Origin: Vulcanimicrobiota bacterium
GTDB lineage: Bacteria; Vulcanimicrobiota; Vulcanimicrobiia; Vulcanimicrobiales; Vulcanimicrobiaceae
Assembly (NCBI GenBank): GCA_963820825.1
Contig: CAWGBN010000009.1
Location: 261,967 to 325,966, forward strand
Direction of reading: 5' to 3'
DNA length: 64,000 nucleotides
Position 1 is the stretch's first letter. Each line of letters starts with the position of its first letter. The notes under the pieces are model-generated. The model was given only the letters and a program-made list of their open reading frames with translations. It searched no databases and was not told where the DNA came from. This document shows, one piece after another, positions 76 to 62,793 of the stretch. The position numbers were made by a program, and so were the translations under genes.

Positions 76-1260
76 ATGAACGTCCGCAAGCTGTTTTTGG
101 GCGCCGGCACCGGACTCGCCGCGGGCTACGCGGCGCTGCGCGCGATGCAGGCAGTGCGCGAGTGGCAGCGGCCGTCGCCGGCGCGAACGCCCGACGCGGT
201 GGCGTACGGCGCGATCCGCCGGAGGCTCGAAGTCGCCGAGACGCTGCGGGGAACGATCGGTTTTCTCGCCTTCGCTTACGGTCCGCTCGCGCGAAGGCTC
301 GACAGCGTCACCCACGGCGTGCCGGCCTGGCTGCGGCCGGCACTCTTCTTCGCACCGCTCTCGCTCGTCTCGTCGGCCGCCGATCTTCCGATATCGTTCG
401 TTGCGGAGTACACGCTCGAGCGGCGCTTCGGTTTGAGCGAGCAGACGCGACGCGCGTGGCTGGGCGAGTACGCAAAGAGCGCGCTACTCGGTACGGCCTT
501 GAGCGCTTTCCTCGCGACGCTGCTCGGCGAGGCGCTCCGCCGGGCGCCGCGCCGTTGGCCGTGGCTCGCGAGCCTCGGCACGCTGCCGCTCCTCGTCGCG
601 GGCAACGTCATCGTACCGCTCTACGTGCTCCCGCTCTTCAACAAGTTCGAGCCGGTGACCGGCTCGCTCGAAGAGCGTCTGCGCAAGCTCGCCAAGCGAT
701 TCGGCGTCGGCGACGCGGATATCTTACGAATGGACATGAGCCGGCAGACGCGCAAGGCGAATGCCTTCGTGACCGGCATCGGACGAACGCATCGAATCGT
801 GCTCGGCGACACGCTCATCGCAGCCTTTCCCGAGAACGAGACCGAGTTCGTCGTGGCGCACGAGCTTGGCCACTACGTCAACAAGGACACGTGGCGCATC
901 ATCGCGCTCGGCGAGGTCCTGGCGGCGACGCTCTTCTTCCTCGCCAACGCCGGCGCGTCGAAGCAGGTGCGCGAGGAACTACGCGACCGGCCGCTGCTGG
1001 TCGCACGTATATACGCGATCATGCTCGTCGCCACGCAACTCTTTCGACCGCTGCTCTTCGCTTTCTCGCGTTCGCGCGAGTGGGCTGCCGACCGCTTCGC
1101 GATCGCCGCAACCCGCGACCCGGCGGCCGGCGCCTCCGCGTTCCGCCGGTTACGCGATCAGAATCTCGCCGACGAAGATCCGCCGGCCTGGTACGAGTTC
1201 TTCTTCGCTTCGCATCCGTCGCTGCGCGCGCGCATCGCCGCGCTGGACCGCTCGGGCTAG
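76..1260 (+). CDS. M48 family (Ste24/HtpX-like) membrane zinc metallopeptidase
   Basis: HELGH zinc motif, ANAFVTG, SREWAADRFA and C-terminal SHPSLRARI motifs; several hydrophobic segments. Confidence 0.9.
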   Translation: MNVRKLFLGAGTGLAAGYAALRAMQAVREWQRPSPARTPDAVAYGAIRRRLEVAETLRGTIGFLAFAYGPLARRLDSVTHGVPAWLRPALFFAPLSLVSSAADLPISFVAEYTLERRFGLSEQTRRAWLGEYAKSALLGTALSAFLATLLGEALRRAPRRWPWLASLGTLPLLVAGNVIVPLYVLPLFNKFEPVTGSLEERLRKLAKRFGVGDADILRMDMSRQTRKANAFVTGIGRTHRIVLGDTLIAAFPENETEFVVAHELGHYVNKDTWRIIALGEVLAATLFFLANAGASKQVREELRDRPLLVARIYAIMLVATQLFRPLLFAFSRSREWAADRFAIAATRDPAAGASAFRRLRDQNLADEDPPAWYEFFFASHPSLRARIAALDRSG

Positions 1261-2675
1261 GGTAAGACCGCCGAGGGGCGAGTGCCAAGCCAAGCGGCGA
1301 GATCGGTGCGATTCGCGGACGAGCCGTCGCGAAGCTCGGCGCGCAGCTCGCCGAAGAGCCCGAAGCCTTCGGCGAAGGCGTCGTGCTTGTGGATCGACTC
1401 CTCGTTCACTTGACTTGCGAAGACAAAGGTCTCGTCGCCCAGGTCGGCATACATGTCGAGCGCGCGCGCGAGTATCCCGCGAACGACGTCTTCGACGAAC
1501 CGCGGATTGTGATGGGCCTTGTTGACGACGAAAAACTCGTCGGGGCGCTTCAGGAGATCGTAGGTCTCGCTCGACATCGAGTTCTCGACGATCTCGACGA
1601 GATCTTCGGCACGAATCGCTTCCGAGTGCGCTTCGTCGAGACCTAACAGAATCGCCCCACGGCCGCGCTGGTTGTGCGTCGCCACCGGGAGCGCGTCGAG
1701 CGCGCGCGCGGCATCGGATTCGCTGAACCCCGCGTCGATCAGCTCGGCCAGCGCGTGTTCGCGCACCATCGCTTGCGCGCAGGGACAGGCCGTCATTCCT
1801 TCGGCTTCCACGCCGATCACGCGGCGCGTGCCGTACGCGTCGGCGTGCGCGACCCCGACCAGCGTATAGGTCTCCTCGCCGCGCTTGCCGCTCACGGGCG
1901 TCCATCGTTCCAATCCGAACTCGGCACGCAGTCGCACGTCGGCGCGCACGGCGCGATGACTGCGCACGACCTCGCAGGCGATCGCTTCGACGAGACGCTC
2001 GATTCGAGCGGGCCGCACGTCGCGCGCCAAAACGTCGAGCGCCGCTTCTTCCAAGATCTCGGCGAAGCGCGACATATGCACGCCCGATTTGTCGGCCGCC
2101 AGATCGGCGACCATGGTGAACTCGCCGTTGTAAACGCGCGCGCGTCCGTCCACTTCCAAGTGCACGACGCGGCGCACCCGCGAGACGCCCGCCCGATTGA
2201 GCGCGAGCCGAACCTCGGGCGCCTCGGATTGCCGGTCGGTATCGAAGCGCAGCCCGCGTTCGCGCCGCCGGACGCCGCCGTTGACCGGCGTCGTGACGAG
2301 ATGCGGCGCGATCTCCGCGAGCGGCGCGAGATTATAGGGACGCCCTTCGAGATGCGGCTGCACGACGGTGCCGTCGTAGACGAGCAAATCGAGGTCGATC
2401 GGTCGCGGCTCCAGCTTGGCGCTCGAGCGTGAACGGCCTACGGCGAGCTCGACGTCGCGCGCAAACCGCCTGAATGCTTCGAGATCGAGCTCGGAGCGCA
2501 GCGCTGCGGCCACGTTGAGATAGGCGGGCCCATCGGCGCCGCCGGCCGCGGGCGACTCGTAGAATGCCGAGACCGCGGAGATCTGGGCACGCGCGCGCAG
2601 GCGTTGGAGCGCGGCGAGGATATTGCCCTGCCGGTCGCCGAGGTTCGAGCCGATTCCGACATAAAGGTCGTGCAC
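1257..2675 (-). CDS. folK-folE2: Fusion of HPPK (FolK) and GTP cyclohydrolase I type B (FolE2/MptA)
   Basis: GTG start at 2675 (MHDLYVGIGSNLGDR, FolK N-terminus), PRPIDLDLL FolK motif; C-terminal GVHMSRF, GMTACPCAQ, ATHNQRG, LLKRPDE, NPRFVEDVVR and ESIHKHDA FolE2/MptA motifs in one open frame. Confidence 0.88.
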   Translation of the reverse strand: MHDLYVGIGSNLGDRQGNILAALQRLRARAQISAVSAFYESPAAGGADGPAYLNVAAALRSELDLEAFRRFARDVELAVGRSRSSAKLEPRPIDLDLLVYDGTVVQPHLEGRPYNLAPLAEIAPHLVTTPVNGGVRRRERGLRFDTDRQSEAPEVRLALNRAGVSRVRRVVHLEVDGRARVYNGEFTMVADLAADKSGVHMSRFAEILEEAALDVLARDVRPARIERLVEAIACEVVRSHRAVRADVRLRAEFGLERWTPVSGKRGEETYTLVGVAHADAYGTRRVIGVEAEGMTACPCAQAMVREHALAELIDAGFSESDAARALDALPVATHNQRGRGAILLGLDEAHSEAIRAEDLVEIVENSMSSETYDLLKRPDEFFVVNKAHHNPRFVEDVVRGILARALDMYADLGDETFVFASQVNEESIHKHDAFAEGFGLFGELRAELRDGSSANRTDLAAWLGTRPSAVLP

Positions 2676-2738
2676 CGGCTCAACCTTCGCGCCGTGCTGC
2701 CGGAATTCCGCACGAGCGCCGCGTATCGTAGGCGGCGA

Positions 2739-3800
2739 GTGGAACGCGATACGATCTATCCCTACGTCCTCGATCCGAAGCTCACGACGCAGGTGTGGGG
2801 AGGCGACGAATTGGTTCGCCTCTACGGCAAGCACGGCGATCCGCAAGCGCGGTTGGGCGAGTCGTGGGAGTGCTGGGATACCGATCGCGTCGTCAATGGG
2901 GCATTGGCCGGTTCGAGCGTGGCCGAGCTGCGATCGAAGCTGGCGCACGAATTTCTCGGCGATCTCGACCCCGCGAAGATCTTTCCGGTGCTCACGAAGA
3001 TCATCACCGCACACGATTGGCTCTCGGTTCAAGTCCATCCCGACGACGCGTACGCGCAGCGTGTCGAGCATCAACCATTCGGAAAGACGGAGTGCTGGTA
3101 CGTGCTCGACGCCCAACCGAACGCGGAGATCGTCTACGGGTGGACGCGCGACACCTCGCGTGCCGAATACGAACGGCGCGTCGCCGACGGCACGCTCGGC
3201 GAGATCCTCCGTCACGTCACGCTCAAGAAGGGCGATACCGTCTACATTCCGCACGGCATGGTGCACGCGATCGGACCGGGACTGACGGTATTCGAAACGC
3301 AGCAGGCATCCGATTTGACCTATCGCATGTTCGACTACAACCGCGTCGGCCTCGACGGGAAACCGCGCGAGCTCCACGTACGCAAGGCCGCGGACGTTCT
3401 CGATTACAGCGCCACCACGACCGGCACGCTCGCTCAGATCTCGTACCGGTTCGAAGGGCTCGAGCGAACCGCGCTCATCGCCGACCAGCACTTTGTCGTC
3501 GAGCGAATCGTCGCCGGCAGCGAGCCGGCCTCGATGGCGACGCAGGGTCGTCCGCTCATTCTGATGTCGCTCGACGCGCCGCTCGAGGTGACCGCCGGCG
3601 AAACGGTAGCGAAGCTGACTCCCTATCAGACCACGCTGATCCCCGCCGCGGCCAAATGGTGCACCGTCGCGGCCACCGCGGGAGACTCCGCGCCGTTTAT
3701 GTTCGTAACACCGCCGGAAGACGGCGAGCGGCTTGCGGCACGCCTGCTCGCCGCCGGGATCGCTCAATCCGCGATCGACGCCTTCATGGCGCAGTTTTGA
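2739..3800 (+). CDS. manA: Mannose-6-phosphate isomerase, type I
   Basis: VWGG, GESWE, LSVQVHPDD, KTECWY, HAIG and ETQQASDLTYR motifs; GTG start inferred at 2739. Confidence 0.9.
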   Translation: MERDTIYPYVLDPKLTTQVWGGDELVRLYGKHGDPQARLGESWECWDTDRVVNGALAGSSVAELRSKLAHEFLGDLDPAKIFPVLTKIITAHDWLSVQVHPDDAYAQRVEHQPFGKTECWYVLDAQPNAEIVYGWTRDTSRAEYERRVADGTLGEILRHVTLKKGDTVYIPHGMVHAIGPGLTVFETQQASDLTYRMFDYNRVGLDGKPRELHVRKAADVLDYSATTTGTLAQISYRFEGLERTALIADQHFVVERIVAGSEPASMATQGRPLILMSLDAPLEVTAGETVAKLTPYQTTLIPAAAKWCTVAATAGDSAPFMFVTPPEDGERLAARLLAAGIAQSAIDAFMAQF

Positions 3801-4804: not shown

Positions 4805-5572
4805 TTGCGCATTCTCATCACCAACGACGACGGAATCGATTCGCCGGGAATCCACGCGCTCGTCGACGCGCTAGTCGCCGATCACGCGTTGATCGTCGTC
4901 GCGCCGTCGGGAAACCGCAGCGGCGTCTCCCACGCGATCACTGCCGATGAGGCGATCACGATCGAGCGCCGGCACGACGCCTCCGTTCCATCATATGCAT
5001 GCTCCGGAACGCCGGCCGACTGTGTCTTTCTCGGTTCGACCGAGCTCGCGTCGCGTTCTGAGCTGGTCGTCAGCGGAATCAACCATGGGCCGAACCTTGC
5101 CGATGACGTCAACTACTCCGGAACCGTCGCCGGCGCCGTGGAGGCGTCGCTCCTGGGCATTCCCGCGCTCGCGGTCTCACTCGCGTCGAATCACGAAGAC
5201 CCGGCCGGCCGCCGCTACTGGGAGAGCGCCGCGGAGATCGTGCGGCGTTGCGTCGAAACGGCCTACGCGAACCTGCGCGACGGAGCTTCTTACTGGAACC
5301 TGAACGTTCCGAATCTGCCGCTCGATTCGATTGCCGGCATCGCCGTGACGCGGCTCGGGCGCAAACGGATCTGCGGGCGGATCGTCGGCCAAGAACACGA
5401 CGGGGCGATTCGTTACTATCGTGCTTGGGAGTCGCCGTTCGAGACGGATCGCGAAACGCTCGGCACCGATATCGGCGCCGTACACGCCGGCTATGCCAGC
5501 TTGACGCCGCTCTTGCTCGATCGCACCGCGGAGTCGGGACTCGACGCCTTGCCGGCGCTGACCATGCGGTAG
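4805..5572 (+). CDS. surE: 5'/3'-nucleotidase SurE
   Basis: ILITNDDGI, GTPADCV and VVSGINHGPN...YSGTV motifs. Confidence 0.93.
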   Translation: MRILITNDDGIDSPGIHALVDALVADHALIVVAPSGNRSGVSHAITADEAITIERRHDASVPSYACSGTPADCVFLGSTELASRSELVVSGINHGPNLADDVNYSGTVAGAVEASLLGIPALAVSLASNHEDPAGRRYWESAAEIVRRCVETAYANLRDGASYWNLNVPNLPLDSIAGIAVTRLGRKRICGRIVGQEHDGAIRYYRAWESPFETDRETLGTDIGAVHAGYASLTPLLLDRTAESGLDALPALTMR

Positions 5573-6420
5573 CGCTTGGGCAATCGCCGGCCCGCGATCT
5601 CGGCGACGGGTCCCAACCGATGCATAAGCTGTTCGAACTCCGCGCAGTTGAGCGACTGCGCTCCATCCGATAGCGCGTTTGCCGGATCCGGATGCACCTC
5701 GATCAAGAGTCCGTGCGCGCCCGCCGCGATGCTCGCAACCGCGATCGACGGAACCAGGCGCGCGATTCCGACGGCGTGCGACGGGTCGACGACCACCGGA
5801 AGATGGGTCATCTCTTCGAGCAACGGAACCACCGAGATGTCGAGAACGTTGCGCGTCGCCACGTCGAACGAGCGCACGCCGCGCTCGCAGAGCACGACGC
5901 CGTCGTTGCCTCCGAGCAGGATATATTCGGCGGCCAGCAGCCACTCTTGAACCGTCGCCGATAATCCGCGTTTGAGAAGCACCGGGGTGCGCGCGGCGCC
6001 AACCTCACGCAAGAGCGGAAAGTTCTGCATGTTGCGCGCGCCGATTTGGAGCATATCGGCGTAGCCCATCACCATCTCGACGTCGCGCGGATCCAGGACC
6101 TCGGTCACGACGCCCAACCCGTACCGGTCTCCCGCGTCGCGCAGCAGCTTGAGCGCCTCTTCGCCGAGGCCTTGAAACGAGTACGGCGAGGTACGCGGCT
6201 TGAATGCGCCGCCGCGCAGCACGTTTGCGCCGGCTGCGGCGACGGCACGCGCGGCGGCTTCGAGTTGCTCGGCCGATTCGACGCCGCACGGACCCGCGCA
6301 GATCGCAACCTCGTCGCCGCCAAACGTCGCACCGTTGCGAAGCCGCACGACCGTCCGCTCGGCCCGTGCGTCGCGACGGACCAGCCGATACGATTGCGGC
6401 ACGTTGACGCCTCGCTCCAT
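5491..6420 (-). CDS. aroF: DAHP synthase type I-beta, lacking N-terminal regulatory domain
   Basis: AGPCGVES, RGGAFKPRTSPYSFQG, QIGARNMQNF, LLKRG, DPSH and EVHPDP..SDG motifs; start ATG 6420 inferred. Confidence 0.92.
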   Translation of the reverse strand: MERGVNVPQSYRLVRRDARAERTVVRLRNGATFGGDEVAICAGPCGVESAEQLEAAARAVAAAGANVLRGGAFKPRTSPYSFQGLGEEALKLLRDAGDRYGLGVVTEVLDPRDVEMVMGYADMLQIGARNMQNFPLLREVGAARTPVLLKRGLSATVQEWLLAAEYILLGGNDGVVLCERGVRSFDVATRNVLDISVVPLLEEMTHLPVVVDPSHAVGIARLVPSIAVASIAAGAHGLLIEVHPDPANALSDGAQSLNCAEFEQLMHRLGPVAEIAGRRLPKRYRMVSAGKASSPDSAVRSSKSGVKLA

Positions 6421-6493
6421 GCGGCCCGCTTCGACGCCTCGCAAGGGCTTCATCCTGCTGCTCGCGGCAGGCCGCAAGCGTGGCGCTGCATGA

Positions 6494-7715
6494 ATGAGAA
6501 TGCCAATGGAGCACGTGGCCGTTACGGGGCTGGGGATCGTTTCGCCGATCGGCAGCACCACCGAATCGTTTTGGCGCCATTTGCTCGCAGGAAGGCTCGC
6601 GATCGCTCCGATGGGCGGCCGCGAGCGTCTCACGGGCAACGGCTTCTGGGCCGCCGTGGGCGACGACTTTCTTCACGCGAGCGCGCTGCCGCGCGCCGCG
6701 TTGCGCAACACCGACCGTTTCACGCAGTACGCGATGGTCGCAACGCACGAGGCGCTCGCGCAGGCGGCACTCGATCTGCCGGCCGATTCGACGGCGGTGA
6801 TTCTGGGCAACACGATGGGCGGCTTTCCGTTCGTCGCCGAATCGCAGACGCGGTTTCTGGACGCGGCGCGCAACGTCACGCCGAAACTCATGGCCCTGGT
6901 CATCCCGAACATGGCGAGCGCGCGCATCGCGATGCATTGGGGAGTTCACGGCCCGCAGCTCGCAATCAGCACCGGCCTGCGCCTCGTCGCTCGATGCGAT
7001 CGGCCTCGCAGCGGGAATGATCGAACGCGGCGAGATCGAGGCGGCGATCGCCGGCGGGAGCGAGACGCTGCTCAGCCCGCTCGTTTACGAGAGCCTCGTC
7101 CGCGCCGGCGCGCTTTCGCGCAATCCCGACCCCACCGGCGCCTCGCGCCCGTTCGACGTCGATCGCGACGGTTTCGTGATGGGAGACGGAGCCGGTATCG
7201 TGATTCTCGAGCGCAGCGAACGCGCGCGAGCGCGTGGCGCCGCGATCCTCGCCCGAGTTCGGGGATATGGTTCGCGCGCGGATGCTTACCACATCACCTC
7301 ACCCGAACCGTCGGCTCGCTACGAGGTGCGCGCGATGCGCGACGCGATCGAAACCGCCGGCGACGCCGGCGCGGCCTGCCGCGTCGTCTACGCGCACGCC
7401 ACCGGCACGATCGTCGGCGACGCCGCCGAATCGAAGGCGATCGATGCCGTCTACGCCCAGCAGCCCGCGATCGTGACCTCGATCAAGGGGCACCTCGGAC
7501 ATAGCATGGCGAGCGCCGGCGTGATGTGCGCGATCGCCGGCATCAAGGGGATGCACGAAGGCTGGATTCCACCGACGCTGGGAACGCAACGCGTCGATTC
7601 GAAGACGCGCTTCGATCTCGTGCTGCGGGAGCCGCGTGCGGAATCGTACTCCGCCTTTCAAGTCAACGCGTTCGGATTCGGCGGACAGAACGCGTCGCTG
7701 ATTCTCTCGCGATGA
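6494..7715 (+). CDS. Beta-ketoacyl synthase (FabF-like), one +1 frameshift near 6974
   Basis: VAVTGLGIVSPIG, DRFTQYA and IPNMA; removing one G at about 6974 restores STACASSLDAIG; SRPFDVDRDGFVMGDG, HATGT, KGHLGH and NAFGFGGQN motifs. Confidence 0.88.
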
Positions 7716-7782
7716 CGCCGAGCAGGGCGCTTTCAACCGCACTAGGAAGGTTCCGGGCGGTTTCTACCGAGGTGCGACGCCG

Positions 7783-10700
7783 ATGAATCTTTTCGTGAAA
7801 GGCACGAGCGGGCCGTTGACCGGTGAGGTGCTGGTCCCGAACTCAAAATATCACGCGCACCGCGCGTTGATCCTGGCCTCGCTCGCGCCGGGAACGAGCC
7901 GGATACTCGGCCTCTCCGACGCTCGACACGTGCAGTACACGATGGACGTACTGCGCGCGCTCGGCACGAAGATCGAGGTCGACCAAGATACCTTGCTCGT
8001 CACCGGCGGTCGCTACCACGTCAAGCGCAAGGTCGTCTCCGTCGGCAGTTCCGGCTCGACCCTCTACTTTATGATCGGATTGGCCGCGCTCGCCGACGCG
8101 CCGATCACCTTGACGGCACAGAAGTACTTCCGCCGCCGTCCCGTCGGGCCGCTGTTGGAAGCGTTGGCGGCGATGGGCGTGCGATTCGAGTCGGCAGACG
8201 GCTGTCCGCCGATCGCGGTTCAGCCCGGAGACCGCGCGGCGGCACGATCGTCATCCCGGGGATGCTCTCGCAGTGGATCTCCGGCCTGCTGCTGCTCGCG
8301 CCGTTTGCGACGGAGCCGACCGTCATCGAAGTCGAAGGCGAGCTCAACGAGCGCCCGTACATCGCGCTCACCATCGCGATGATGCGCACCTTCGACTTGC
8401 AGGTGCGCATGGCGCCGAATTGGCGCCGGTTCGAGATCGAACCGGGACAGCAGGCACGGCCGGCGACCGTCGAGCTTCCGCCCGACATCGGCTCGGCCGC
8501 GTTCGGCCTCGCCGTCACCGCGATCCATCCGTCGAACGTGCTCTTTCGCGGCTTGCACCAGCTCCCCGGAGAGCTGCCCGACCATCCCGAGGGCGCGTTC
8601 ATGGAGATCGTTGCCGAGATGGGCTTGCCGATGAGCTACGATGCGCACGAGAAGGCCGTACGCGTGAAGCACGACGGCATCGAGCTTCGCGGTATGCGCG
8701 TCGATTGCCGCGACATTCCCGACATGCTTCCGATTCTCTCGACCCTCGGCACCTTTGCAAAGGGGGAGACCGTCCTGGAGAACATCGCGCACGTCCGGCT
8801 CAAGGAATCCGATCGCGTCGCCGCGATGCTGCAGCTCAATCTCATGGGCGGAGATCTCGAGCTGCACGACGACCGGCTCGTCGCACGCGGCGTTTCGAAA
8901 CTCTTCGGAGCGCGGCTCTCCTCCTTCAACGATCATCGAATTGCTGATGTCACTGGCGGTGGCCGCGTCGCGCGCCGAAGGATCGAGCACGCTCACCTAT
9001 CCCAACGCATACCGCATCTCCTATCCGCGCTTTCTCGAAGCGATGCGCAGCATCGGCGTGCCGATGTCGATCGCCAAGGTCCCCGCGAGCGGAGAGGTCA
9101 CCGCACCGAAGGCGGCCCGGCCGATGCTCAAACCCGATCGCGCGGCCGAGATGACGCTCGACGAGCTGCTTCGCCGCCTCGCGCGCGAGCGGCCGCTCGA
9201 ACTCGCGGTCGTCGAGACGCGCGACGAAACCGATGCGGCGCTGACCTGGCAAGAGCTGCTCGATCGCGTCGAACGCACCGCGATGTTTCTGTTCGATCTC
9301 GGCGTGCGTCCGGGCGAGTGCGTCGCTTATCAGCTCCCCAACTGCATCGAGTTCGTCGTGATCTCGCTGGCTGCGCTGCGGATCGGCGCGATCTGCTGTC
9401 CGCTGATGCCGATCTTCCGCGAGCGCGAGATGGCCTTCTGCCTGCGCCGTTCCGGGGCGCGCGTTCTCGTCGTGCCCGACGAGGCGCGCGGCCGCCATCC
9501 CGCCGGCGAGATTGCGTCGCTGTTGAGCGAGGCTTCGATCTTCAGCGGCGCGCTTCCATTGCGCCTCGAGCACGTCATCGTCTCGGCGAGCGGGCGCCGC
9601 GCCCATCCGTTACCGGCGGCCGATAATGCGAACGGCAGCGTGAACTGGATTCGTCTCGAAGATGCGCTCAAAACCGTCAGCGTGGATGCGCAAGCGCTCG
9701 ACGCGCGGCGCGTCAAACCGGCCGCGCTCGCGCAGCTCCTCTTCACCTCGGGAACCTCGGGCGAACCGAAAGGCGTTCTCCATCGCAACGACGTGCTGAT
9801 GCGCGCCGCCGCAATGGAGGTCGAGCACCTCGGGCTCAACGCGGAGGACCGCGTCTTCGTCCCCTCCCCGCTCGCCCATCAGACCGGTTTTCTCTACGGC
9901 ATGTGGCTGGCGATCGTCATGGGCGTCCCCCAGATCGTGCAACCGATTTGGAACGCGCCTCGCGCGTTGCGCGCGCTCAACGATTGGGACGGAACGTTCG
10001 TTCAGGCGGCGACGCCGTTCTTGGCCGATATGGTAAAGGCCGTCGAGGATGGCGCGCTGCCGCCCGCGGCCCTGCGGATATTCGTCGCGACGGGCGCGGC
10101 GGTGCCGCGCGGACTCGCCGAGCGCGCGACGCGCATTCTCGGCACCGCCGTCTGCGGCGCGTGGGGAACGACCGAATCGTGCCTCGGCTCGCTCTCGGCG
10201 CCGGGCGATGAGGCCGCAAAGGTCTGGGGGACCGACGGCCGCGCGCTGCGCGGAATTCGTTTGCGCATCACCGATTCCGAGGGCCGCATCTTATCGCCGG
10301 GCGCGGAAGGACACTTCGAGATCTTCTCGCCGACGATGTTCGAGGGTTACGCCGATCACCCCGAGTGGACGGCGGCAGCCTATACGCCCGACGGGTGGTT
10401 TCGCACCGGCGATCTCGGCGCGATCGACGAATCGGGATACATCCGCATCACCGGCCGCGTTCGCGACGTGATCAATCGCGGCGGCGAGAAGATTCCCGTC
10501 GCCGAGGTCGAGCAGCTCCTGAGCGACCATCCGGCAGTCGCGCAAATCGCAATCGTTGCGATGCCCGATCCGCGCTTAGGCGAGCGCGCCTGCGCGTTCG
10601 TCGTCTTGCGGCGCGGTGCGACGCTCGATTTTGACCGGATGCAGCATTATCTCGACGCCTGTCAAGTCGCCAAGCAGTACTGGCCCGAGCGGCTCGAAAT

Positions 10701-10809
10701 CGTCGGCGAACTCCCGAGAACGCCCTCGGGGAAGGTGCAGAAGTACGTACTGCGCGAGCGCGCCCGTGAGATGCGGCCGCACGAGCGCGTGAAGGAAGCG
10801 ATATCGTGA
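7783..10809 (+). CDS. EPSP-synthase-like domain fused to acyl-CoA ligase (PlmJK/AsuB1/AnsJ+AnsK-like), two compensating frameshifts near 8230 and 8940
   Basis: AroA-fold motifs PNSKYHAHRAL, RRPVGPL, SQWISGLL, RLKESDR and NDHR; AMP-binding motifs FTSGTSGEPKG, WGTTE, WFRTGD and LPRTPSGKVQK; first and last segments share a frame (1009 codons in total). Confidence 0.85.
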
Positions 10810-11978
10810 AGCAACTCGACCGCGCAGCGTTCGACGAGGCCGCGTTTGCCGCATTGAAGGAGGAGATCGCGGCATACGTTGCCGGTCCCGGCGAAACGTG
10901 GGCCGCCCGCATCGAGCGCGAGCGCCGCGTGCCGCCGGAGCTCTGGGAAGACCTGCGTGCGCGTGGATATCTCTCGCTCGCCGCGCCCGAAGCCTATAGA
11001 GGGCGCGGCATTCCCTTCACCCGCTTTCTCGAGCTGATCGAGCTCTTTTCGATGTCGCACGCGTCGATCCGAATGATCGTCCACGTCGTCAACGGCACGT
11101 GGCGAGCGATGGACCGATTCGCGACGCAGGAGCAGCGCCGACAATTCGTAGTTCCCTCGGTTCAAGGCGCGGTGAAGATCGCATTTACGCTCACCGAACC
11201 GACCGCCGGGACCGGCGCCGACCTTCGCTGCAGCGTCGTGCGCGAAGGTGATACCTATTACCTGAGCGGCGAGAAACACCTCATCACCTTCGGAACCATC
11301 TGCGATTACTGGCTGCTCTTCGCGCGGCTCGCCGGTACGCGCGGCGCCGAGGGAACCGTCGCGCTCCTCGTCGACCGGAACTCGCCCGGTGCGACAGTCG
11401 TCGAGATGGACGAATCGATGGGCGTGCGCGGAACCGACCACGCCCGCTTGCATTTCGACCGCACGCCGGTTCCCGTTGCCAATCGCCTCGGCGACGAAGG
11501 CGAAGGGTTGGCAATTGCGCTCGGCGGATTTCTGACGCCCAGCCGCATCTCCGTCGCGATGAGCTGCGTCGGTTTGGCGCGGCGCGCGCACGAGCTTGCG
11601 GTGGCCTATGCCGGCAAGCGCGAGACCTTCGGCAAGAAGCTCGAAGCGCGGCAAGCGATTCGATTCATGATCGCCGAGAATGCGACCGATATCGAGGCGG
11701 CGCGCCAACTCGTGTTACACGCCGCGCGCCAATGGGAGAGCGGAACTCCCGACGCGCCGATGCTCTCCTCGATGTCGAAGCTTCAAGCCGTCGACATGCT
11801 CACCCGCGTCACCGACAAGGCGCTGCAGATTCACGGCGGCATCGGCTTCTGGCAGCCCAACGCCATCGAGCGCGTCTATCGCGACGCGCGGGCGCAACGC
11901 TTCGAAGAGGGCACGAACGAAATCCAAAAGACCGTCATCGCGCGAGCGCTTCTCGGAAGCGCGGGAGGCGGAGCATGA
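10806..11978 (+). CDS. Acyl-CoA dehydrogenase (AnsL/PlmL/AsuB2-like)
   Basis: [28 protein letters not shown] and QIHGGIG...[11 protein letters not shown] motifs; GTGA overlap with the upstream gene. Confidence 0.9.
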
Positions 11979-12781
11979 GCCGCCGGTTCGAGAACAAGGT
12001 CTCGCTCATCACCGGCAGTTCGCGCGGGATCGGCCGGGCGCTCGCCTTGACGCTTGCGCGCGAGGGCGCCTCGGTCGTCGTTAACTACGTGCGCAACGCC
12101 GATCTCGCGGCACAAACCGTCCGCGATATCGAGGCGCTCGGCACGCGGGCAATCGCCGTGCAGGCGAATATGGAGACGGTCGAGGAGATCGATCTGCTCT
12201 TCGACGCGGTCGAAGCGGAGTTCGGCCGGCTCGATCATTTCGTCTCGAACGCCGCGGCCAGTTCGTTCAAGAAGATCCTCGACCTCAAAGCGAACAATCT
12301 CGATCGCTCGTTCGATCTGAACGTTCGCGCCTTCGTCCTCGGCGCGCAGAGGGCCGTCAAGCTGATGAAGGACGGCGGACGCATCGCCGTACTTTCGAGC
12401 TATGGAAGCATTCGCGCCTATCCCACCTATGCGAATCTCGGCTCGAACAAGGCGGCGGTCGAAGCATTCGTGCGGTACATGGCCGTCGAGTTCGCGCCGC
12501 GCGGCATCAACGTCAACGCGATCAACGGCGGGCTTATCGACACCGAATCCTGCGCCTACTTCTACGAGCGGGTTGCGGGGATGGCACCGATCGAGTCGGT
12601 GCTCTCCAAGGTCCCCAAAGGGCGCATGGGCACGACGCAAGAGGTCGCCGACACGATCGCGTTCCTGCTCGCTCCCGAGTCGGAGTACATCACCGGTCAG
12701 ACGATCTGCGTCGACGGCGGCTTGAGCGTTATCGCGCCGCCGTTTTACTCCGATACCTCGCCGCCCCTCTCGCTGACGTAG
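11975..12781 (+). CDS. SDR enoyl-thioester reductase (ChcA/FabL-like, candidate 1-cyclohexenylcarbonyl-CoA reductase)
   Basis: ATG at 11975 (MSRRFENK), [12 protein letters not shown] and the Y-x6-K (YANLGSNK) enoyl-reductase-type motif. Confidence 0.85.
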
Positions 12782-12789
12782 CCGCGCTG

Positions 12790-14808
12790 GTGTTCGAACA
12801 CGCGCTCGCGGCGGGTTCGATCGGCTCGCTGCGACTTCGCAATCGCATCGTGATGGGCTCGATGCATTTGGGCATCGAGCGAGACGGCGCGGCGCTGGCC
12901 GCCTTTTACGCCGAGCGCGCGCGAGGCGGCGCGGGCTTGATCGTCACCGGCGGCTCGTCGGTCAGCCGGGTCGGCGCAGGCGGGCGCAACTACAGCTTCA
13001 TCAACGATCCGCAGAGCGCCGCCCCGCTGCGCCAAGCCGTAACGGCCGTGCACGAAGCGGACGGGCGAATTGCGTTGCAGCTCTTTCATGCCGGCCGTTA
13101 CGCGCTCTACGCATCGTTCGGATTGCAGCCGGTCGCGCCGTCGGCGATTCCATCGCGCTTCTCCCCCGATCCGCCGCACGCGCTGAGCGACGAAGAGATT
13201 CACGAAACGATCGGCGATTTTGCGCGCGGGGCGGCGCGCGCGCGCGAGCTCGGCTTTGACGCGGTTGAAGTGATGGCTTCCGAGGGCTATCTCCTCAACG
13301 AGTTTCTCTCGCCGCTCACCAACCGCCGCGACGACGCCTGGGGCGGCGACTTGCAACGGCGCATGCGCCTGCCGCGCGAGGTCTTAGCCGCGATCCGCGC
13401 GAGCGCCGGCGCCGATCTTCCCGTCATCTTCCGAATCTCCGGTGCCGACCTAATGCCCGACTCGACGAGCCCGGGCGAGACGCTCGATTTTGCGCGCGCG
13501 CTCGCCGCGGACGGCGTCGACGCGCTCAACGTCGGCATCGGCTGGCACGAGTCGGCCATTCCTACCGTCCAGCATCTCGTCCCCAGCGGCGTCTGGGTCC
13601 GGTACGCGGCTGCAGTCAAAGCTGCCGTCGGCAGCGTTCCGGTGATCGCCAGCAATCGCATCAACTCGCTCGCCGCCGCGCAAGCCGTACTCGCCGCGGG
13701 GAGCGTCGACTTCGTCTCGATGGCGCGTCCGTTTCTCGCCGACGCGCAGATCGTTGCCAAGGCGGCGCGCAACGAATCGCAGCTCGTCGACACGTGCATC
13801 GCCTGCAATCAGGCATGCATCGATCTCTCGCTGCTCGATGCGCCGGTCTCGTGCATGGTCAATCCTCGCGCCGGCCGCGAACTCGAGTTCCCCGAACCCG
13901 GCAGCGCGCCGGAGCGGCCGCGCCGGTTTGCCGTGATCGGCGGCGGGCCGGCCGGAATGGAGAGCGCGCGCGCCCTCGCCGCGCTCGGGCATCGCGTCGA
14001 ACTCTTTGAAGCGCAAGGCGAGCTCGGCGGCCAGTTTCGAATGGCACGGCGCATCCCCGGCAAGCGTGACTTCGGCGAGACGATTCGTTACTTCACCAAC
14101 GAACTCGCTCGACTCGGCGTGGTGGTGCATTTCGATTGCCGGCTTCGCGACGCGAGCGCACTGCGCGCGTTCGATGCCGTTGTCCTCGCGTCGGGAGTGC
14201 TGCCGCGGCGAGTCGCGCTTGAAGGAAGCACGCTTCCGCACGTCGTTTCGTATGCCGACGTCCTATCGAACGGTTGCGCGGTCGGCGAACGCGTTGCCAT
14301 CGTCGGCGCGGGCGGAATCGGCGCCGACGTCGCGCATTTCTTGAGTTTCGGAGAGGTAAACGTCGACGAGACGACGCGCTTCCTTTACGAACAGGGATTG
14401 GCGGCGCCGGCGGACGGCGCGCTGCTGGTGACCGGACGCAAGCGCGTTGCGCTGATGCGCCGCGGACCGACCATCGGTGAAGGCATCGGCAAAACGACGC
14501 GCTGGGCCGTCGTCCGCGCGTTACGCGCCGCGGGAGTCGAGGCGCTGCCGAACGTCGCGTACGAAGCGATCGTTCCGGGCGGCATTCGCGTGCGAGCCGC
14601 CGACGGTTCGTCGCGAACGATTCCCGCGGATACGGTCGTGATCGCGGCGGGTCAGGAACGAAACGACGCGCTGCTCGAACCAATCCGCGCGCTCGGGGTT
14701 CCGTATCGCGTCGTCGGCGGCGCGCGAGAGGCGATCGAACTCAACGCCGTGCGCGCATTCGAAGAGGGTCTGCGCGCCGCGTACGAGCTCGCACGCTTCG
14801 TCTCCTAA
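12790..14808 (+). CDS. fadH: NADPH-dependent 2,4-dienoyl-CoA reductase (FadH/AnsM/PlmM-like)
   Basis: NRIVMGSMH, SEGYLLNEF, GIGWHE, CIACNQAC...CMVNP 4Fe-4S motif, GGGPAG and GKTT. Confidence 0.92.
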   Translation: MFEHALAAGSIGSLRLRNRIVMGSMHLGIERDGAALAAFYAERARGGAGLIVTGGSSVSRVGAGGRNYSFINDPQSAAPLRQAVTAVHEADGRIALQLFHAGRYALYASFGLQPVAPSAIPSRFSPDPPHALSDEEIHETIGDFARGAARARELGFDAVEVMASEGYLLNEFLSPLTNRRDDAWGGDLQRRMRLPREVLAAIRASAGADLPVIFRISGADLMPDSTSPGETLDFARALAADGVDALNVGIGWHESAIPTVQHLVPSGVWVRYAAAVKAAVGSVPVIASNRINSLAAAQAVLAAGSVDFVSMARPFLADAQIVAKAARNESQLVDTCIACNQACIDLSLLDAPVSCMVNPRAGRELEFPEPGSAPERPRRFAVIGGGPAGMESARALAALGHRVELFEAQGELGGQFRMARRIPGKRDFGETIRYFTNELARLGVVVHFDCRLRDASALRAFDAVVLASGVLPRRVALEGSTLPHVVSYADVLSNGCAVGERVAIVGAGGIGADVAHFLSFGEVNVDETTRFLYEQGLAAPADGALLVTGRKRVALMRRGPTIGEGIGKTTRWAVVRALRAAGVEALPNVAYEAIVPGGIRVRAADGSSRTIPADTVVIAAGQERNDALLEPIRALGVPYRVVGGAREAIELNAVRAFEEGLRAAYELARFVS

Positions 14809-15555
14809 CTAGGCGTACCGCTTTCGTTCGTCGCGCCGGTAGCCGATCGCCGCAATCGCCGCGAAGGTCGCCGTGTAGAGCGCCAGCCCCGCGAGCGCGC
14901 GCATCGCGTTACTATCGCTGCCGATGACGCTCCATAAGAGATCGGCGAACTGCCGCGTCGGCAGATACGGTGAGATCTTGGCGACGGCGCTCGGAAGCTC
15001 GTCGGGCGGCATCCAGAGGCCGCCGGCGTAGGCGAGCAGCAGATTGGCGGCCGTCGCGATCGGCACGGCGGCGCGCGCCGACGTCCAATAGCCGATCGAG
15101 ATGCCGATCAGAACGAACGGCACCCCGCCAAAGAACGCGTAGATCAATACGCGCAGCCACTGCTCGAGCCCGAGATCGATCGGGGTAAAGGCTCGCGCGA
15201 CGAGCGCGACGACGAGCGCGGTCAAGATTCCAAAGAGCACCGCGGTTAGGATGCGCGCGGCGAAACGAACGAGCACCGGAACGGCGAGCGTGCGAAGATA
15301 GCGCTCCCACGGGCGGCCTCGCTCCTGCGCGATGCCGACGCCGAACTGATAGAGCGTCACGCCGACGATTGCGAAGACGATAAACGCCAGCGTCGTGAAG
15401 TTCGCGATCTCGGCGCTGCGACGCGCAAACGGCAGGTCGAATAGTACGAAGAACATCGCCGGAAAGAGCACGGTCGGCACGACGTAGCCCGGCCAGCGAA
15501 GGAGATCGAGAAAGTCGATCCGCGTATGGGCGCGCAGCAGCGTGAAAGAACTCAT
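14809..15555 (-). CDS. ABC-2 type exporter permease
   Basis: About six hydrophobic helices, ER..W..LR motif and GGLWMP; coupled to the ATPase gene. Confidence 0.85.
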   Translation of the reverse strand: MSSFTLLRAHTRIDFLDLLRWPGYVVPTVLFPAMFFVLFDLPFARRSAEIANFTTLAFIVFAIVGVTLYQFGVGIAQERGRPWERYLRTLAVPVLVRFAARILTAVLFGILTALVVALVARAFTPIDLGLEQWLRVLIYAFFGGVPFVLIGISIGYWTSARAAVPIATAANLLLAYAGGLWMPPDELPSAVAKISPYLPTRQFADLLWSVIGSDSNAMRALAGLALYTATFAAIAAIGYRRDERKRYA

Positions 15556-16379
15556 TGGACACTCCCGGTGAGCGAGAGAAATGCTTCTTCGAGCGACGGA
15601 TGCACGATCTCGAGCTCCGAAAACGCGATTCCATCTGCGACCATCGCGCGCACGTAGGCGTCGGCGTCGCCGGTCGACACGGAGACGGGGCCGTCGCTTC
15701 CGATGTAGGTCAGTCGCCGGCCGCCGACGCGTTCGCGCAACGCCTGCGGCGTGCCGTCGAAGAGCAGCCGGCCGCGATCGATGACGACGATCCGAGTGGC
15801 GAGCTCGTGCGCCTCATCGAGATAGTGCGTCGTAAAGAGAACCGAGCGGCCCGAACCCAAATCGCGTACCGCCTGCCAGAGCCTGCGCCGCGATTCGACG
15901 TCGAGTCCGGTGGTCGGCTCGTCGAGGACGGCCAACTCCGGATTCCCCGCGAAGGCCAATGCAAGCGCGAGGCGGCGCGACTCTCCGCCCGAGAGCGTTC
16001 CGGCGCGCCGTTTTGCGAGCGCCTCGAGGCCGAACCGCGCGAGCGTTTCACCGGCGGCCGCCGGACTCGGATAATGTGCCGAGACGAACGAAACGATCTC
16101 GTCGACGCGCAGCATGTCGGGAAAACCGCTCTCCTGCGGCGTGACGCCGAGGCGCCGGCGAGTGGCGACGTCGCGCGGCGAGCCGCCGAAGAGGGCGACG
16201 CGACCGGAGTCAGCGCCGCGCAGGCCAAGTGCGATCTCGAGCGCAGTCGTCTTACCGGCACCATTGGGGCCGAGCAGGGCGACGATCTCGTCGCGGCAGA
16301 CGTGCAACGTCAGCGAGTCGAGCGCGCGAATCTCGCCGTACGACTTCGAGACGCCGTCAAAGGCAAGAATGCTCTCCAT
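15552..16379 (-). CDS. ABC exporter ATP-binding protein
   Basis: GPNGAGKTT, LSGGE, LDEPTTGLD and TTHYLDEA. Confidence 0.93.
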   Translation of the reverse strand: MESILAFDGVSKSYGEIRALDSLTLHVCRDEIVALLGPNGAGKTTALEIALGLRGADSGRVALFGGSPRDVATRRRLGVTPQESGFPDMLRVDEIVSFVSAHYPSPAAAGETLARFGLEALAKRRAGTLSGGESRRLALALAFAGNPELAVLDEPTTGLDVESRRRLWQAVRDLGSGRSVLFTTHYLDEAHELATRIVVIDRGRLLFDGTPQALRERVGGRRLTYIGSDGPVSVSTGDADAYVRAMVADGIAFSELEIVHPSLEEAFLSLTGSVQ

Positions 16380-58358: not shown

Positions 58359-59594
58359 CTAAGCGCAGGAGCGGAGAGCTGGCGGGGATCTTGACCCGCC
58401 GAGGACGGTCGTCGAAGGCCGGCCGAGCCAGCGCTCGAGCACGGTGGCGTAGACGCTGCGGAAGTCGGTGCTGAAGGCCACGTTGCCCATGTTCGTGCTG
58501 GCGAGGTCGGGCAGCTTCCCGTAGACGCCGCCTTTGACGCCGCCGCCGATCAAGAACAGCGGCGAGGCTTCGCCGTGGTCGGTGCCGCGAGCGCCGTTCT
58601 CTTCGACGCGCCGCCCGAACTCGCTGAAGGTCAGGTAAGCACGCGCCGGTCGTTGCCGTGCGCGGCAAGGTCGTCGTAGAACGCGGAGATCGCGTCGGAG
58701 AACTGCCCGAGCAGATTGTTCTGCGTCGCCATCTGATTGACGTGCGTGTCGAACGACCCGTGCGAGACGTACAGCACTTTCGTGCCGAGATTGCTGCCGA
58801 CGATCTGCGCGACCAGCGCCAGGCTTCGACCGATCGGCGTCGCCGGATACGCCGCCTGCGTCTTGTATCCCGAGATCAGCGCGGCAGCTCTTCGGACGTG
58901 CGCTGCGCGTGGTCTTCGATTTCCATCACGTGCGCCAAGTACGGCGAGCTGAAGGGCAGCTCGCGATCGCGCGATTCCTGCGAGAAGGCCTCGCGCGAGA
59001 ACGCATCGCGGTTGGCGATCATCAAGCCGTAGTGCGCCGAGGTTGGAGATCGTCGGAATGTCGGTGCGATTGGAAACCAGCGCTTCCGGAAGGACTTGCG
59101 ACACGGCGACGCCTTTGAAGAGGTTGTTGTCGGGAAGGCCGCGGCCTCGTCGAGATAGCGGCCGAGCCAGCCGGTGTGCTCGTAGCGGTCCGGGCACGCC
59201 GGTCTGCCAGATCTCGCTCGAGCGGAAGTGCGAATGGTCGGCGTTCGGGTAGCCGACGCCTTGCACGATCGCGACGATGCCCTTGTCGTACATGCGCTTT
59301 GAACGACTGCATCTTCGGGATTGAAGCCGAGGCGTCGCATCGATCGCCAGCACGTCGCTTGCCGGAATCGCGAGCGACGGGCGCATTTGATAGTACTGCG
59401 GGTTGCCGTGCGGCACGACGCAGTTCAAACCGTCGTTTCCGCCGTTTAAGTTGACGAGCACCAGACAACGGTTCTGCGCCTCCGGGCAATCCCGGCAACG
59501 GCGACTGCGCCAGCGCCTGCGCGAAGACGTGATCGCCGTTGGCGACTACGGCGAGTCCGGAAACCGTTCCGAGGAGAAAGTTCAACCGCTTCAT
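58359..59594 (-). CDS. DUF1501 domain protein, multiply frameshifted
   Basis: NLNGGNDGLN.VVP, GVGYPN..HSHFRS, GSFDTH..Q, FSEFGRR..EN, GTDHG and DFRSVYATVL fragments. Confidence 0.8.
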
Positions 59595-59605
59595 CGTATG
59601 CCTTG

Positions 59606-61085
<1,480 letters not shown>

Positions 61086-61209: not shown

Positions 61210-62793
61210 ATGGCTTTGCTGGAATCGCGCCTCGAACGATCGGAGAGTTTCGCTCGTCAACGCCGAGCGCATGGAAGGCATGGTCGCGGAGTTGCGCGGG
61301 CGCCTGGTTGCCGTTCGCGAAGGCGGCGGCGCCGAGGCGATCGCGAAACATCGCAAACGCAACAAGCTGACCGCGCGCGAGCGCATCGAACGCGCGATCG
61401 ACGCCGGGTCGGATTTTCTCGAGTTCTCGGCGCTGGCGGCCAACGGCATGTACGACGACCGCTTCGCCGTCGGCCGGAATGATCACCGGGATCGGCATCG
61501 TGGAAGGGCAGCACTGCGTCATCGTCGCCAACGACGCGACGGTCAAGGGCGGCACGTACTATCCGATGACCGTCAAGAAGCATCTGCGCGCGCAGGAGAT
61601 CGCCGAGCAGAATCATCTGCCGTGCATTTACCTGGTCGATTCCGGCGGCGCGTTCTTGCCGCTGCAAGCCGACGTGTTCCCCGACCGCGAGCACTTCGGA
61701 CGGATTTTCTACAATCAGGCGCGCATGTCGGGTAAGCGCATTCCGCAGATCGCGGCAGTCATGGGCTCGTGCACCGCCGGCGGCGCGTACGTTCCGGCCA
61801 TGAGCGACGAAACGGTGATCGTCAAGGGCAACGGAACGATCTTTCTCGGCGGACCGCCGCTTGTGAAGGCGGCGACCGGCGAGGAGGTGACCGCCGAAGA
61901 GCTCGGCGGCGGCGACGTGCACACGCGCATTTCGGGCGTCGCCGATCACCTCGCCAACGACGACGCGCACGCGCTCGCGATCGTCCGCGAGATCGTGGCG
62001 AATCTTCATCTCGAGCTGCCGCGCCAGTGGGACCGCGCCGAACCGCAGCCGCCGAAATACGACGCCGCGCGAAATCTACGGCATCATTCCGGCGGACAGC
62101 CGCGTCGGCTACGACGTGCGCGAAGTGATCGCGCGGCTGGTCGACGCGTCCGACTTCCACGAGTTCAAGCCGCGCTACGGCACGACGCTGGTCTGCGGAT
62201 TCGCGCGCATCGAAGGACATCCGATCGGCATCCTCGCCAACAACGGCATTCTCTTCAGCGAAAGCGCGCTCAAAGGCGCGCACTTCATCGAGCTCTGCGC
62301 GCAGCGCGGCACGCCGCTGCTCTTCCTGCAGAACATCACCGGCTTCATGGTCGGCAAGGAGTACGAAAACCGCGGCATCGCCAAAGACGGCGCGAAGCTG
62401 GTGACGGCGGTCGCGTGCGCCGAAGTGCCGAAGTTCACGGTCGTGATCGGCGGAAGTTTCGGCGCGGGCAACTACGGGATGTGCGGACGCGCCTACTCGC
62501 CGCGCCAGCTCTGGATGTGGCCCAACGCGCGCATCAGCGTGATGGGCGGCCCGCAGGCCGCGAGCGTGCTTTCGACGGTCAAGGGCGACCTGTCGCCGGA
62601 AGAAAAGGCCGAGTTCGAAGCACCGATTCTCGAGAAGTACGAACGCGAAGGCAATCCGTACTACTCGACCGCGCGGCTCTGGGACGACGGCATCATCGAT
62701 CCGCTCGACACGCGCCGCGTCATCGCGATCGGCCTCGACGCCGCCGCGCACGCGCCGCAGCCGCGCACGCACTTCGGCATCTTCCGAATGTAG
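61210..62793 (+). CDS. Methylcrotonoyl-CoA carboxylase beta subunit (carboxyltransferase), frameshifted
   Basis: [42 protein letters not shown] and [13 protein letters not shown]...FGIFRM. Confidence 0.88.

Follow-up and report, generated by a model that had tools for sequence, protein, structure and literature searches.

Gene content and organization of the cassette

We analysed a 64-kb stretch of DNA (64,000 nucleotides, hereafter the window) from contig CAWGBN010000009.1 of the Vulcanimicrobiota assembly GCA_963820825.1. The subject of this work is a group of five genes on one strand, hereafter the cassette, together with a 3-deoxy-D-arabino-heptulosonate 7-phosphate (DAHP) synthase gene that faces it head to head. 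The cassette encodes a ketosynthase (KS), a fusion of a 5-enolpyruvylshikimate 3-phosphate (EPSP) synthase-like domain with a CoA ligase, an acyl-CoA dehydrogenase (ACAD), a short-chain dehydrogenase/reductase (SDR), and a reductase with flavin mononucleotide (FMN) and flavin adenine dinucleotide (FAD) domains (Table 1). Gene identities were taken from Pfam and NCBIfam scans, open reading frame (ORF) listings, and reads of the gene junctions; the Pfam scan covered 61 frames across the window. The gene content, gene order and outer coordinates (5491-14808) proposed in an initial annotation of this DNA were recovered by the Pfam and NCBIfam scans. The cassette is best read as a putative operon that would convert shikimate to cyclohexanecarboxyl-CoA (CHC-CoA) and that includes its own condensing enzyme.

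Table 1. Features of the locus, in coordinates of the window
Feature	Coordinates	Strand	Basis
DAHP synthase, type I-beta (AroF/B. subtilis type, without chorismate mutase domain)	5491..6453	-	PF00793, 256 bits
Divergent intergenic region between DAHP synthase and KS; presumed shared promoter	6454..6505	.	Coordinates
FabF-like KS, KAS I/II fold, ~402 aa	6506..7715	+	PF00109 and PF02801 over two frames
EPSP-synthase-like/adenylate-forming CoA ligase fusion, PlmJK/MycA4 type, 1008 aa intact	7783..10809	+	PF00275, PF00501 and PF13193 over three frames
ACAD family protein, PlmL/AnsL position	10806..11978	+	PF02771, PF02770, PF00441
Enoyl-reductase-type SDR, ChcA position	11975..12781	+	PF13561, 203.8 bits
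Two-domain FMN (old yellow enzyme, OYE) and FAD/NAD(P) reductase of the 2,4-dienoyl-CoA reductase (FadH) kind, PlmM/AnsM position	12790..14808	+	PF00724, 206.7 bits; PF07992, 81.7 bits

The junction reads showed a GTGA start/stop overlap between the fusion and ACAD genes, an ATGA overlap between the ACAD and SDR genes, and a spacing of 8 bases between the SDR and reductase genes. The close coupling of the genes described in the initial annotation was thus seen at these junctions; what it had not mentioned is that two of the genes, encoding the KS and the fusion, are each spread over more than one reading frame in this sequence. The SDR carries the Y-x6-K motif that had been reported for it (YANLGSNK, residues 146-153 counted from 11993) and no YxxxK motif. 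We take ChcA to share the Y-x6-K motif. The top NCBIfam match of the SDR was FabL (265.2 bits, under the cut-off of 328). In the same scan, the ACAD reached no NCBIfam equivalog at cut-off, and the top matches of the reductase were FadH/OYE-type models, all under their cut-offs. A sigma-70 consensus scan found nothing in the divergent intergenic region. A promoter and terminator scan of 5300-15700 gave one promoter-like match (0.9 expected) and nine terminator-like matches (7.9 expected), which is not beyond chance.

Relatives from the same genus, Candidatus Cybelea, were used for comparison. The source assembly of the window is referred to as G000 (85% complete, 9 contigs). G018, G022 and G014 are 95-96% complete genus relatives (G018, 96%), and G005 is a further genus relative.

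The fusion protein: EPSP-like and ligase halves

The intact EPSP-like N-terminal domains of the fusion scored 309-333 bits against the aroA model TIGR01356, above its cut-off of 287.25. In the alignment with E. coli EPSP synthase (EPSPS), K22, R27, R124, D313, E341, R344, H385 and R386 were kept, while the positions of S23, N94, R100, P101, S197 and N336 were changed; the roles of these residues are those that we presume for the E. coli enzyme.

A score of this size would also be given by an EPSP-like half that is the cell's own EPSP synthase for aromatic amino acids, in which case the locus would be a shikimate-pathway island. The adjoining DAHP synthase is the only one, and no housekeeping aroA was found in G000, where only the EPSP-like domain of the cassette matched the aroA model or the AroA of a relative. 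However, a separate full aroA is present in G018, G022 and G014 and a partial one in G005, and G000 is 85% complete. Furthermore, the domain is always fused or adjacent to a CoA ligase and three reductive enzymes, and the six changed positions argue in the same direction. We consider an aromatic-amino-acid EPSP synthase very unlikely.

The top NCBIfam match of the ligase half was the cyclohexanecarboxylate-CoA ligase AliA (TIGR03208), the ACAD matched cyclohexane-1-carbonyl-CoA dehydrogenase models, and JGI names many homologues 'cyclohexanecarboxylate-CoA ligase'. These matches raise the question of whether the genes degrade cyclohexanecarboxylate or a related alicyclic acid in the manner of AliA/AliB/Bad-type systems. 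The scores nevertheless fell under all equivalog cut-offs (TIGR03208, 462.8 vs 792.3; NF043006, 190.4 vs 650; TIGR03207, 143.6 vs 575.35), the ligase is fused to an EPSP-synthase-like domain, and the gene order is that of the biosynthetic plm set described below. In addition, the Pfam families listed for the 61 frames of the window include none for a hydratase, a hydroxyacyl-CoA dehydrogenase or a ring-opening hydrolase. A catabolic role is hardly credible. Public records name the fusion either 'EPSP synthase' or 'cyclohexanecarboxylate-CoA ligase', and these names hide a widespread core cassette, present in at least 573 stretches.

The DAHP synthase is the cell's own enzyme

The DAHP synthase scored above the cut-offs of two models (NF006421, 417.3 bits, cut-off 335; TIGR01361, 373.9 bits, cut-off 267.75). 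Its start, picked from the ORF text, is at 6453 or 6420. It is the sole PF00793 match in G000, G018, G022, G014 and G005, and no type II DAHP synthase (PF01474) was found in G000. Of 40 other genera of the family without the cassette, 39 had counterparts with 60-72% identity (G048, G061, G068 and G069 are marked unpublished). The initial annotation had regarded this gene as a DAHP synthase belonging to the cassette. Given that it is the sole copy in five genus genomes and that cassette-less genera have counterparts, we rejected an extra, cassette-borne copy: this is the cell's own DAHP synthase and not an added, pathway-specific one. In 11 other genera, the neighbours of the DAHP synthase share none of the flanking genes of the window (L113 and L117 are from unpublished genomes), indicating that only the position of the gene is specific to the genus.

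The single PF00793 match in each of the five genomes also means that no 3-deoxy-D-manno-octulosonate (KDO)-8-phosphate synthase of that family was detected in them. A cultured relative of the lineage is described with lipopolysaccharide in the excerpted text of PMC9758169.

Conservation and distribution of the cassette

The fusion was strongly matched in all 24 other genomes of the genus. In 20 of the genus matches listed, it spanned at least residues 1-1002 of 1008 without a stop. Outside the genus, it was found in two of five genomes of one genus from another family of the order (66-68% identity). In a third family, represented by 11 genomes (G036 is marked unpublished), there was no fusion; the matches listed, which involved the ligase half or a separate aroA-like gene, did not exceed 34% identity. 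When 150 genomes drawn from the window's family were searched at E <= 1e-150, the fusion was found only in the three of its own genus and in none of the 147 from 77 other genera.

The synteny of the divergent DAHP synthase and the KS-fusion-ACAD-SDR-reductase set was identical in all five genus relatives fetched. In G025, the genome from the other family, the genes from KS through reductase were kept with 58-74% identity among unrelated housekeeping genes. The synteny survey called for by the initial annotation therefore returned the five-gene order in every genus relative fetched and in G025.

We also scanned one genome per prokaryote species, which yielded at least 573 confirmed stretches, and compared the loci of the best 80 of these; the statements on loci in this and the next paragraph refer to these best 80. 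Genes were picked by similarity and Pfam, as a filter on third-position GC content (GC3) was too weak in G000 and mis-picked antisense frames in Streptomyces loci. The order fusion-ACAD-SDR-reductase was present in most loci. The departures were L101, without an ACAD match, and L102, without an SDR match, and loci at contig ends (e.g. L031, L041, L051, L082 and L104) held only part of the set. The five-gene order headed by the KS was seen in all Eremiobacterota loci with enough flank except L101, and the upstream KS and DAHP synthase were seen only in Eremiobacterota loci. In L101, a divergent locus of an Eremiobacterota metagenome-assembled genome (MAG; 9065-15900), the DAHP synthase lies directly before the fusion, with no KS or ACAD match and with the SDR and reductase kept. 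The cassette is conserved far beyond chance.

The loci outside Eremiobacterota came from Streptomyces, Actinocatenispora, Nakamurella, Microlunatus, Sinomonas, Arthrobacter, Microbacterium and others. Cassette proteins of Actinomycetota were 50-76% identical to those of the window (Streptomyces cassettes, 51-71%); these identities are to uncharacterised cassettes of Streptomyces and other actinobacteria, and the likeness to the Plm, Asu and Ans proteins is one of family content and order. Intact fusion homologues had 1000-1012 aa and the same three domains. In a tree of 32 fusions, those of Eremiobacterota, including G025, were split from 18 of Actinomycetota by a supported branch (SH-aLRT 98). 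The tree carries no known root and so names no donor.

The names on homologues and loci give the lineage as Candidatus Cybelea, Vulcanimicrobiaceae or Eremiobacterota, which bears out the earlier guess of an Eremiobacterota/Vulcanimicrobiota host. Taken jointly with the CHC-CoA and lipid assignment set out below, we lean slightly towards an operon that is genus-wide and vertically kept in Candidatus Cybelea (Eremiobacterota/Vulcanimicrobiota).

Stand-alone EPSP-like homologues of 425-470 aa were also found. Those from Steroidobacteraceae (Gammaproteobacteria) and Limnocylindrales MAGs were 58-63% identical to the Cybelea N-terminal domain (P0132, P0169, P0178, P0192, P0210 and P0231), which indicates that the module extends well past Actinomycetota and Eremiobacterota.

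The ketosynthase is a diverged FabF-type enzyme

Against the fabF model TIGR03150 (cut-off 493.75), the KS orthologues of G018 and G025 scored 365.9 and 360 bits, and the two KS pieces of G000 scored 251.2 and 88.9 bits. The housekeeping fabF located elsewhere in G000 scored 582 bits, over the cut-off, and the housekeeping copies as a whole scored 582-597. The intact KS of G005 aligned end to end with solved FabF structures, among them Thermus thermophilus FabF (1j3n), with the Cys, both His and the Lys kept. Its motifs are TACASS, AHATGT and GHLGH, and these residues are also encoded in G000, before and after its frame break.

In a tree of 26 KSs, the Eremiobacterota cassette KSs formed their own clade (100/100) on a long branch (1.46), distinct both from the housekeeping FabFs and from the clade that holds the cassette-linked KSs of actinobacteria. 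Among the actinobacteria, the gene immediately after the reductase encodes a stand-alone FabF-like KS in four cases: Microbacterium sp. STN6, S. albus NRRL B-1811, S. iconiensis and the Streptomyces sp. SPB074 group. The tree did not support orthology of the Eremiobacterota KS with these cassette-following KSs. Both cassette-linked types have the C-terminal sequence GFGGQN, where FabFs have GFGGHN. No modular polyketide synthase (PKS) was found by Pfam scans of the flanks within 10 kb of six loci (L096, L070, L084, L087, L098 and L010), of which L096, L098 and L087 are the ones with a KS following the cassette.

Frame breaks in the KS and fusion genes

In G000, the KS passes from frame 2 to frame 3 at ~6974, directly 5' of the TACASS active-site codons, and the fusion passes from frame 1 to frame 3 at ~8226-8229 and back to frame 1 at 8943. 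DNA alignment with six of six relatives showed that the G000 KS has one extra base at ~6973-6975, that the fusion is one base short at ~8226-8229, and that it has an extra G at 8943, within the conserved NDHR-I-LMS motif. In tblastn searches, intact 1008-aa fusion homologues matched G000 in three collinear pieces with 84-92% identity and no further stops.

To place these breaks against the background of the assembly, 375 long frames from 14 20-kb blocks of G018 were searched against the whole G000 genome. The top match reached 70% identity or more for 87 of these frames, and five of the 87 showed a frame switch, one of the five being doubtful. The unique frame-switch sites in G000 numbered 6-13 in 103-164 kb of conserved coding DNA (0.06-0.08 per kb), and they were clustered, e.g. 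six sites in C9:15-31 kb. The housekeeping fabH, which lies outside the window (G000:C2:12538-13502, minus strand), is also read in two frames, with model positions 3-87 in one and 86-322 in the other. Four of the 25 genus genomes had the fusion in pieces: G000, G019, G024 and G001. The first three are few-contig assemblies (85, 69 and 74% complete), and in G001 (94% complete, 280 contigs) the two pieces lie on two contigs.

If the three indels were real, the KS and the fusion would be pseudogenes, the operon would be decaying in this strain, and no CHC-CoA would be made. Several observations speak for such decay and so weigh against a working operon in this genome. The three indels fall within 6974-8943, i.e. 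three in 2 kb vs ~0.1-0.2 expected from the genome-wide mean, one of them is exactly at the codon of the KS catalytic Cys, and none of the three lies in a long homopolymer. In addition, a search for sequencing runs returned one soil run only, which held 0.05 of the words and was not the source sample. On the other side, frame switches occur genome-wide and cluster elsewhere too, the housekeeping fabH is likewise split, and the other split fusions in few-contig assemblies are from genomes 69-74% complete, G000 itself being 85% complete in 9 contigs. There is also no further stop and no loss of similarity after any of the breaks. The spread of frame switches, the split fabH and the split fusions in few-contig assemblies fit the indel error of long reads. 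We therefore regard the three indels as most likely consensus errors of a long-read assembly and decay of the operon as improbable.

Elsewhere in the window, at 58631-60517 (minus strand) and 62116-62793 (plus strand), DUF1501 and DUF1800 are present as fragments only and a carboxyl-transferase frame covers profile positions 260-483 only. These fragments are probably further frame breaks of the G000 assembly.

Predicted pathway from shikimate to CHC-CoA

In the pathway that we propose, the CoA-ligase half of the fusion would activate shikimate. Alternating dehydrations and reductions would then strip the three hydroxyls, carried out by the other three enzymes of the core (ACAD-like flavoenzyme, Y-x6-K enoyl reductase and FMN/FAD dienoyl-CoA reductase), and the end product of these steps would be CHC-CoA. 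The EPSP-synthase-like half is given no step in this proposal. The diverged FabF-type KS would condense the CHC unit, or the first elongation products, with malonyl-acyl carrier protein (malonyl-ACP) of the housekeeping type II fatty acid synthase (FAS), and omega-cyclohexyl fatty acids for the membrane would result. The sole DAHP synthase, head to head with the operon, may tie the supply of shikimate to it.

The chemistry of the single steps is modelled on the Streptomyces literature. Work by Floss and Reynolds reportedly established three rounds of dehydration and reduction, with ChcA acting on several enoyl-CoA intermediates. By its title, the one in-vitro study of the pathway (Skyrud et al. 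2020, cited in PMC13304725) calls the flavoenzyme an FAD-dependent dehydratase.

Fate of the product

Omega-cyclohexyl fatty acids are a textbook oddity of the thermoacidophilic Alicyclobacillus and a few actinobacteria. A common shikimate origin of the ring in ansatrienin and in these acids is, by its title, the topic of a study by Moore and Floss (1994).

Full-length PF00109 genes in G000, G018, G022 and G014 were restricted to the housekeeping fabF and the cassette KS; the other PF00109 matches covered 38-69 profile positions. Pfam scans of the window found no PKS or nonribosomal peptide synthetase (NRPS), so that the earlier statement that none is adjacent can be extended to these four genomes for full KS genes. 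Condensation domains were absent from G000, G018 and G014. They were found only in G022, 16 in number and ~0.9 Mb from the operon. This very large NRPS region (G022:C1:1220592-1273406) has frames of up to 7029 aa. A PKS or NRPS using CHC-CoA, as a starter-unit sub-cluster would require, was found neither in the locus nor in the four genomes. Given the lack of a PKS, the KS heading the operon and the presence of a type II FAS, elongation to omega-cyclohexyl fatty acids is the most economical fate of the product.

Homologues from Herbiconiux bear on this fate. Six Herbiconiux entries have stand-alone EPSP-like homologues with 57-60% identity. C17:1 w9c, an unusual acid for Microbacteriaceae, may in H. 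daphne be a misnamed cyclohexyl-C17:0. This species, which has the EPSP-like homologue P0213, is listed with 25% 'C17:1 w9c', a formula isomer of cyclohexyl-C17:0 (PMC10011130). The genus description of Herbiconiux, as quoted in the same paper, states that 'Cyclohexyl-C17:0 may be present' (PMC10011130). The Herbiconiux homologues and the possible presence of cyclohexyl-C17:0 together offer independent support for a lipid product.

CHC-CoA may instead be made for something other than bulk membrane lipid. The KS would then build a short CHC-primed keto-acid or polyketide-like metabolite, or CHC-CoA would acylate a lipopeptide, a signal or a storage compound. In favour of this, every case studied by experiment has CHC-CoA going into secondary metabolites, the cassette KS stands well apart from FabF (365.9 vs 493.75 bits, and a long branch), a large NRPS with 16 condensation domains is encoded by one member of the genus (G022), and a Streptomyces group has a KS and a second CoA ligase after the cassette. 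However, the operon lacks an ACP, acyltransferase, thioesterase, cyclase or tailoring gene and lies among housekeeping genes, and the NRPS occurs in one of four genomes vs the cassette in 24 of 24. A non-lipid product seems unlikely, if worth keeping in view.

Several further points weigh against a lipid product made by the cassette KS. The normal role of FabF-type enzymes is to extend acyl-ACP rather than to prime from acyl-CoA, and a housekeeping FabH is present that could prime alone. The Eremiobacterota and actinobacterial KSs form separate clades, so their descent does not speak for a shared role. The resemblance to the characterised PlmJK, ChcA and AsuB is one of family content and order, and the cyclohexyl lipids of Cybelea are a prediction from its genes. 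Finally, in the excerpted text on Vulcanimicrobium alpinus, the only cultured member of the phylum, the major acids are iso-C14:0, iso-C14:0-3OH and iso-C13:0-3OH, with no cyclohexyl acids (PMC9758169). Given that the cassette was not found in the 147 genomes of 77 other family genera, the lipids of V. alpinus weigh little either way. The literature searches found no paper linking Eremiobacterota with cyclohexyl lipids, no gene assignment for the omega-cyclohexyl lipid route and, on Cybelea, a nomenclature list only.

On balance, and with modest confidence, the gene content favours an operon that makes CHC-CoA and passes it to omega-cyclohexyl fatty acids through its own KS; the lipid fate and the role of the KS are well motivated and are inferred from the genes around them. 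With less than even confidence, we suggest a wider scheme in which Cybelea, a diderm soil lineage, makes omega-cyclohexyl membrane lipids with a dedicated, diverged FabF-type KS that primes or extends from CHC-CoA, classically the job of FabH. In this scheme, the phylum would have gained the module in a single event, either from Actinomycetota or in common with them, and the same logic (a CHC cassette with its own FabF paralogue and no PKS) would explain the cyclohexyl-C17:0 of Microbacteriaceae.

The genus belongs to a phylum that has hardly been cultured and is widespread in peat and acid soils. Streptomyces-type CHC-CoA genes in a genome without PKS, headed by their own KS, provide a concrete gene set for the lipid route. 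If the lipid assignment is true, it would mean a new membrane adaptation for a phylum with one cultured member, omega-cyclohexyl acids could be used as a biomarker for such bacteria in acid peat and soil, and the FabF paralogue would have an unusual choice of substrate.

Neighbouring genes in the window

The locus is flanked upstream by msrA, msrB and surE and downstream by a pair of ABC-2 transporter genes. By Pfam, the remaining genes of the window have housekeeping functions (ribosomal protein L21, signal peptidases, RNase HII, ArgRS and others), as the initial annotation had described the surroundings of the cluster. On the minus strand at 1257-3767, an 836-aa frame combines HPPK (residues 369-488) with GTP cyclohydrolase FolE2 (residues 511-799), and its first ~368 residues have no Pfam match. 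In several relatives, this frame was matched as two pieces of unequal identity.

Comparison with known systems

The CHC cassette is found here in a new phylum and a new context; the type of system is already known. The closest counterpart is the phoslactomycin set plmJK-plmL-chcA-plmM of Streptomyces sp. HK803, which, in the excerpted text of PMC5852498, has the same four families in the same order with a fused first gene. Table 2 of that paper lists plmJK as an AMP-dependent synthetase and ligase, plmL as a short-chain acyl-CoA dehydrogenase, ChcA as a cyclohexenylcarbonyl-CoA reductase and plmM as an NADH:FMN oxidoreductase (PMC5852498). All four plm-type members were found in order in the window, with the fusion first, the ACAD second, the SDR third and the FMN/FAD reductase fourth, so the match of order proposed in the initial annotation holds when compared with this table. 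Phoslactomycin-type sets also include pnP1-P4 (S. platensis) and lmP1-P4 (Streptomyces sp. ACT232). The plm genes lie within a modular PKS cluster and supply its starter, whereas Cybelea has no PKS in the window or in four genus genomes. Two further differences from plm are the FabF-like KS at the head of the Cybelea operon and the cell's DAHP synthase opposite it.

The ansatrienin genes (ansJ, K, L, chcA and ansM; MycA1-A4) and the asukamycin genes (asuB1-B4) belong to the same shikimate pathway, with four or five genes; we take ansJ and ansK to be separate genes. In the excerpted sources, MycA1-A4 are assigned to the formation of CHC from shikimate for ansatrienin/mycotrienin (PMC13304725), and asuB1-B4 to the formation of cyclohexylcarbonyl-CoA for asukamycin (PMC12720273). 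Unlike those of Cybelea, these CHC genes are parts of Streptomyces antibiotic clusters.

Compared with FabF/KAS II (TIGR03150), the Cybelea KS has the same fold, length and Cys-His-His-Lys set and differs in its score, its own long-branch clade and its GFGGQN end. The catabolic AliA/AliB/BadH proteins of Rhodopseudomonas palustris and Aromatoleum are from related CoA ligase and ACAD families, with names from automatic annotation; the Cybelea set stays under all their equivalog cut-offs, and its ligase is fused to an EPSP-like domain.

The omega-cyclohexyl acids of Alicyclobacillus and Microbacteriaceae, the latter presumably including Curtobacterium pusillum, correspond to the end product predicted here. 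In Alicyclobacillus membranes, omega-alicyclic acids reach up to ~60-65% in the excerpted text of PMC10562698. These hosts are Gram-positive, whereas Eremiobacterota are described, in the excerpted text of PMC9758169, as Gram-negative with an outer membrane.

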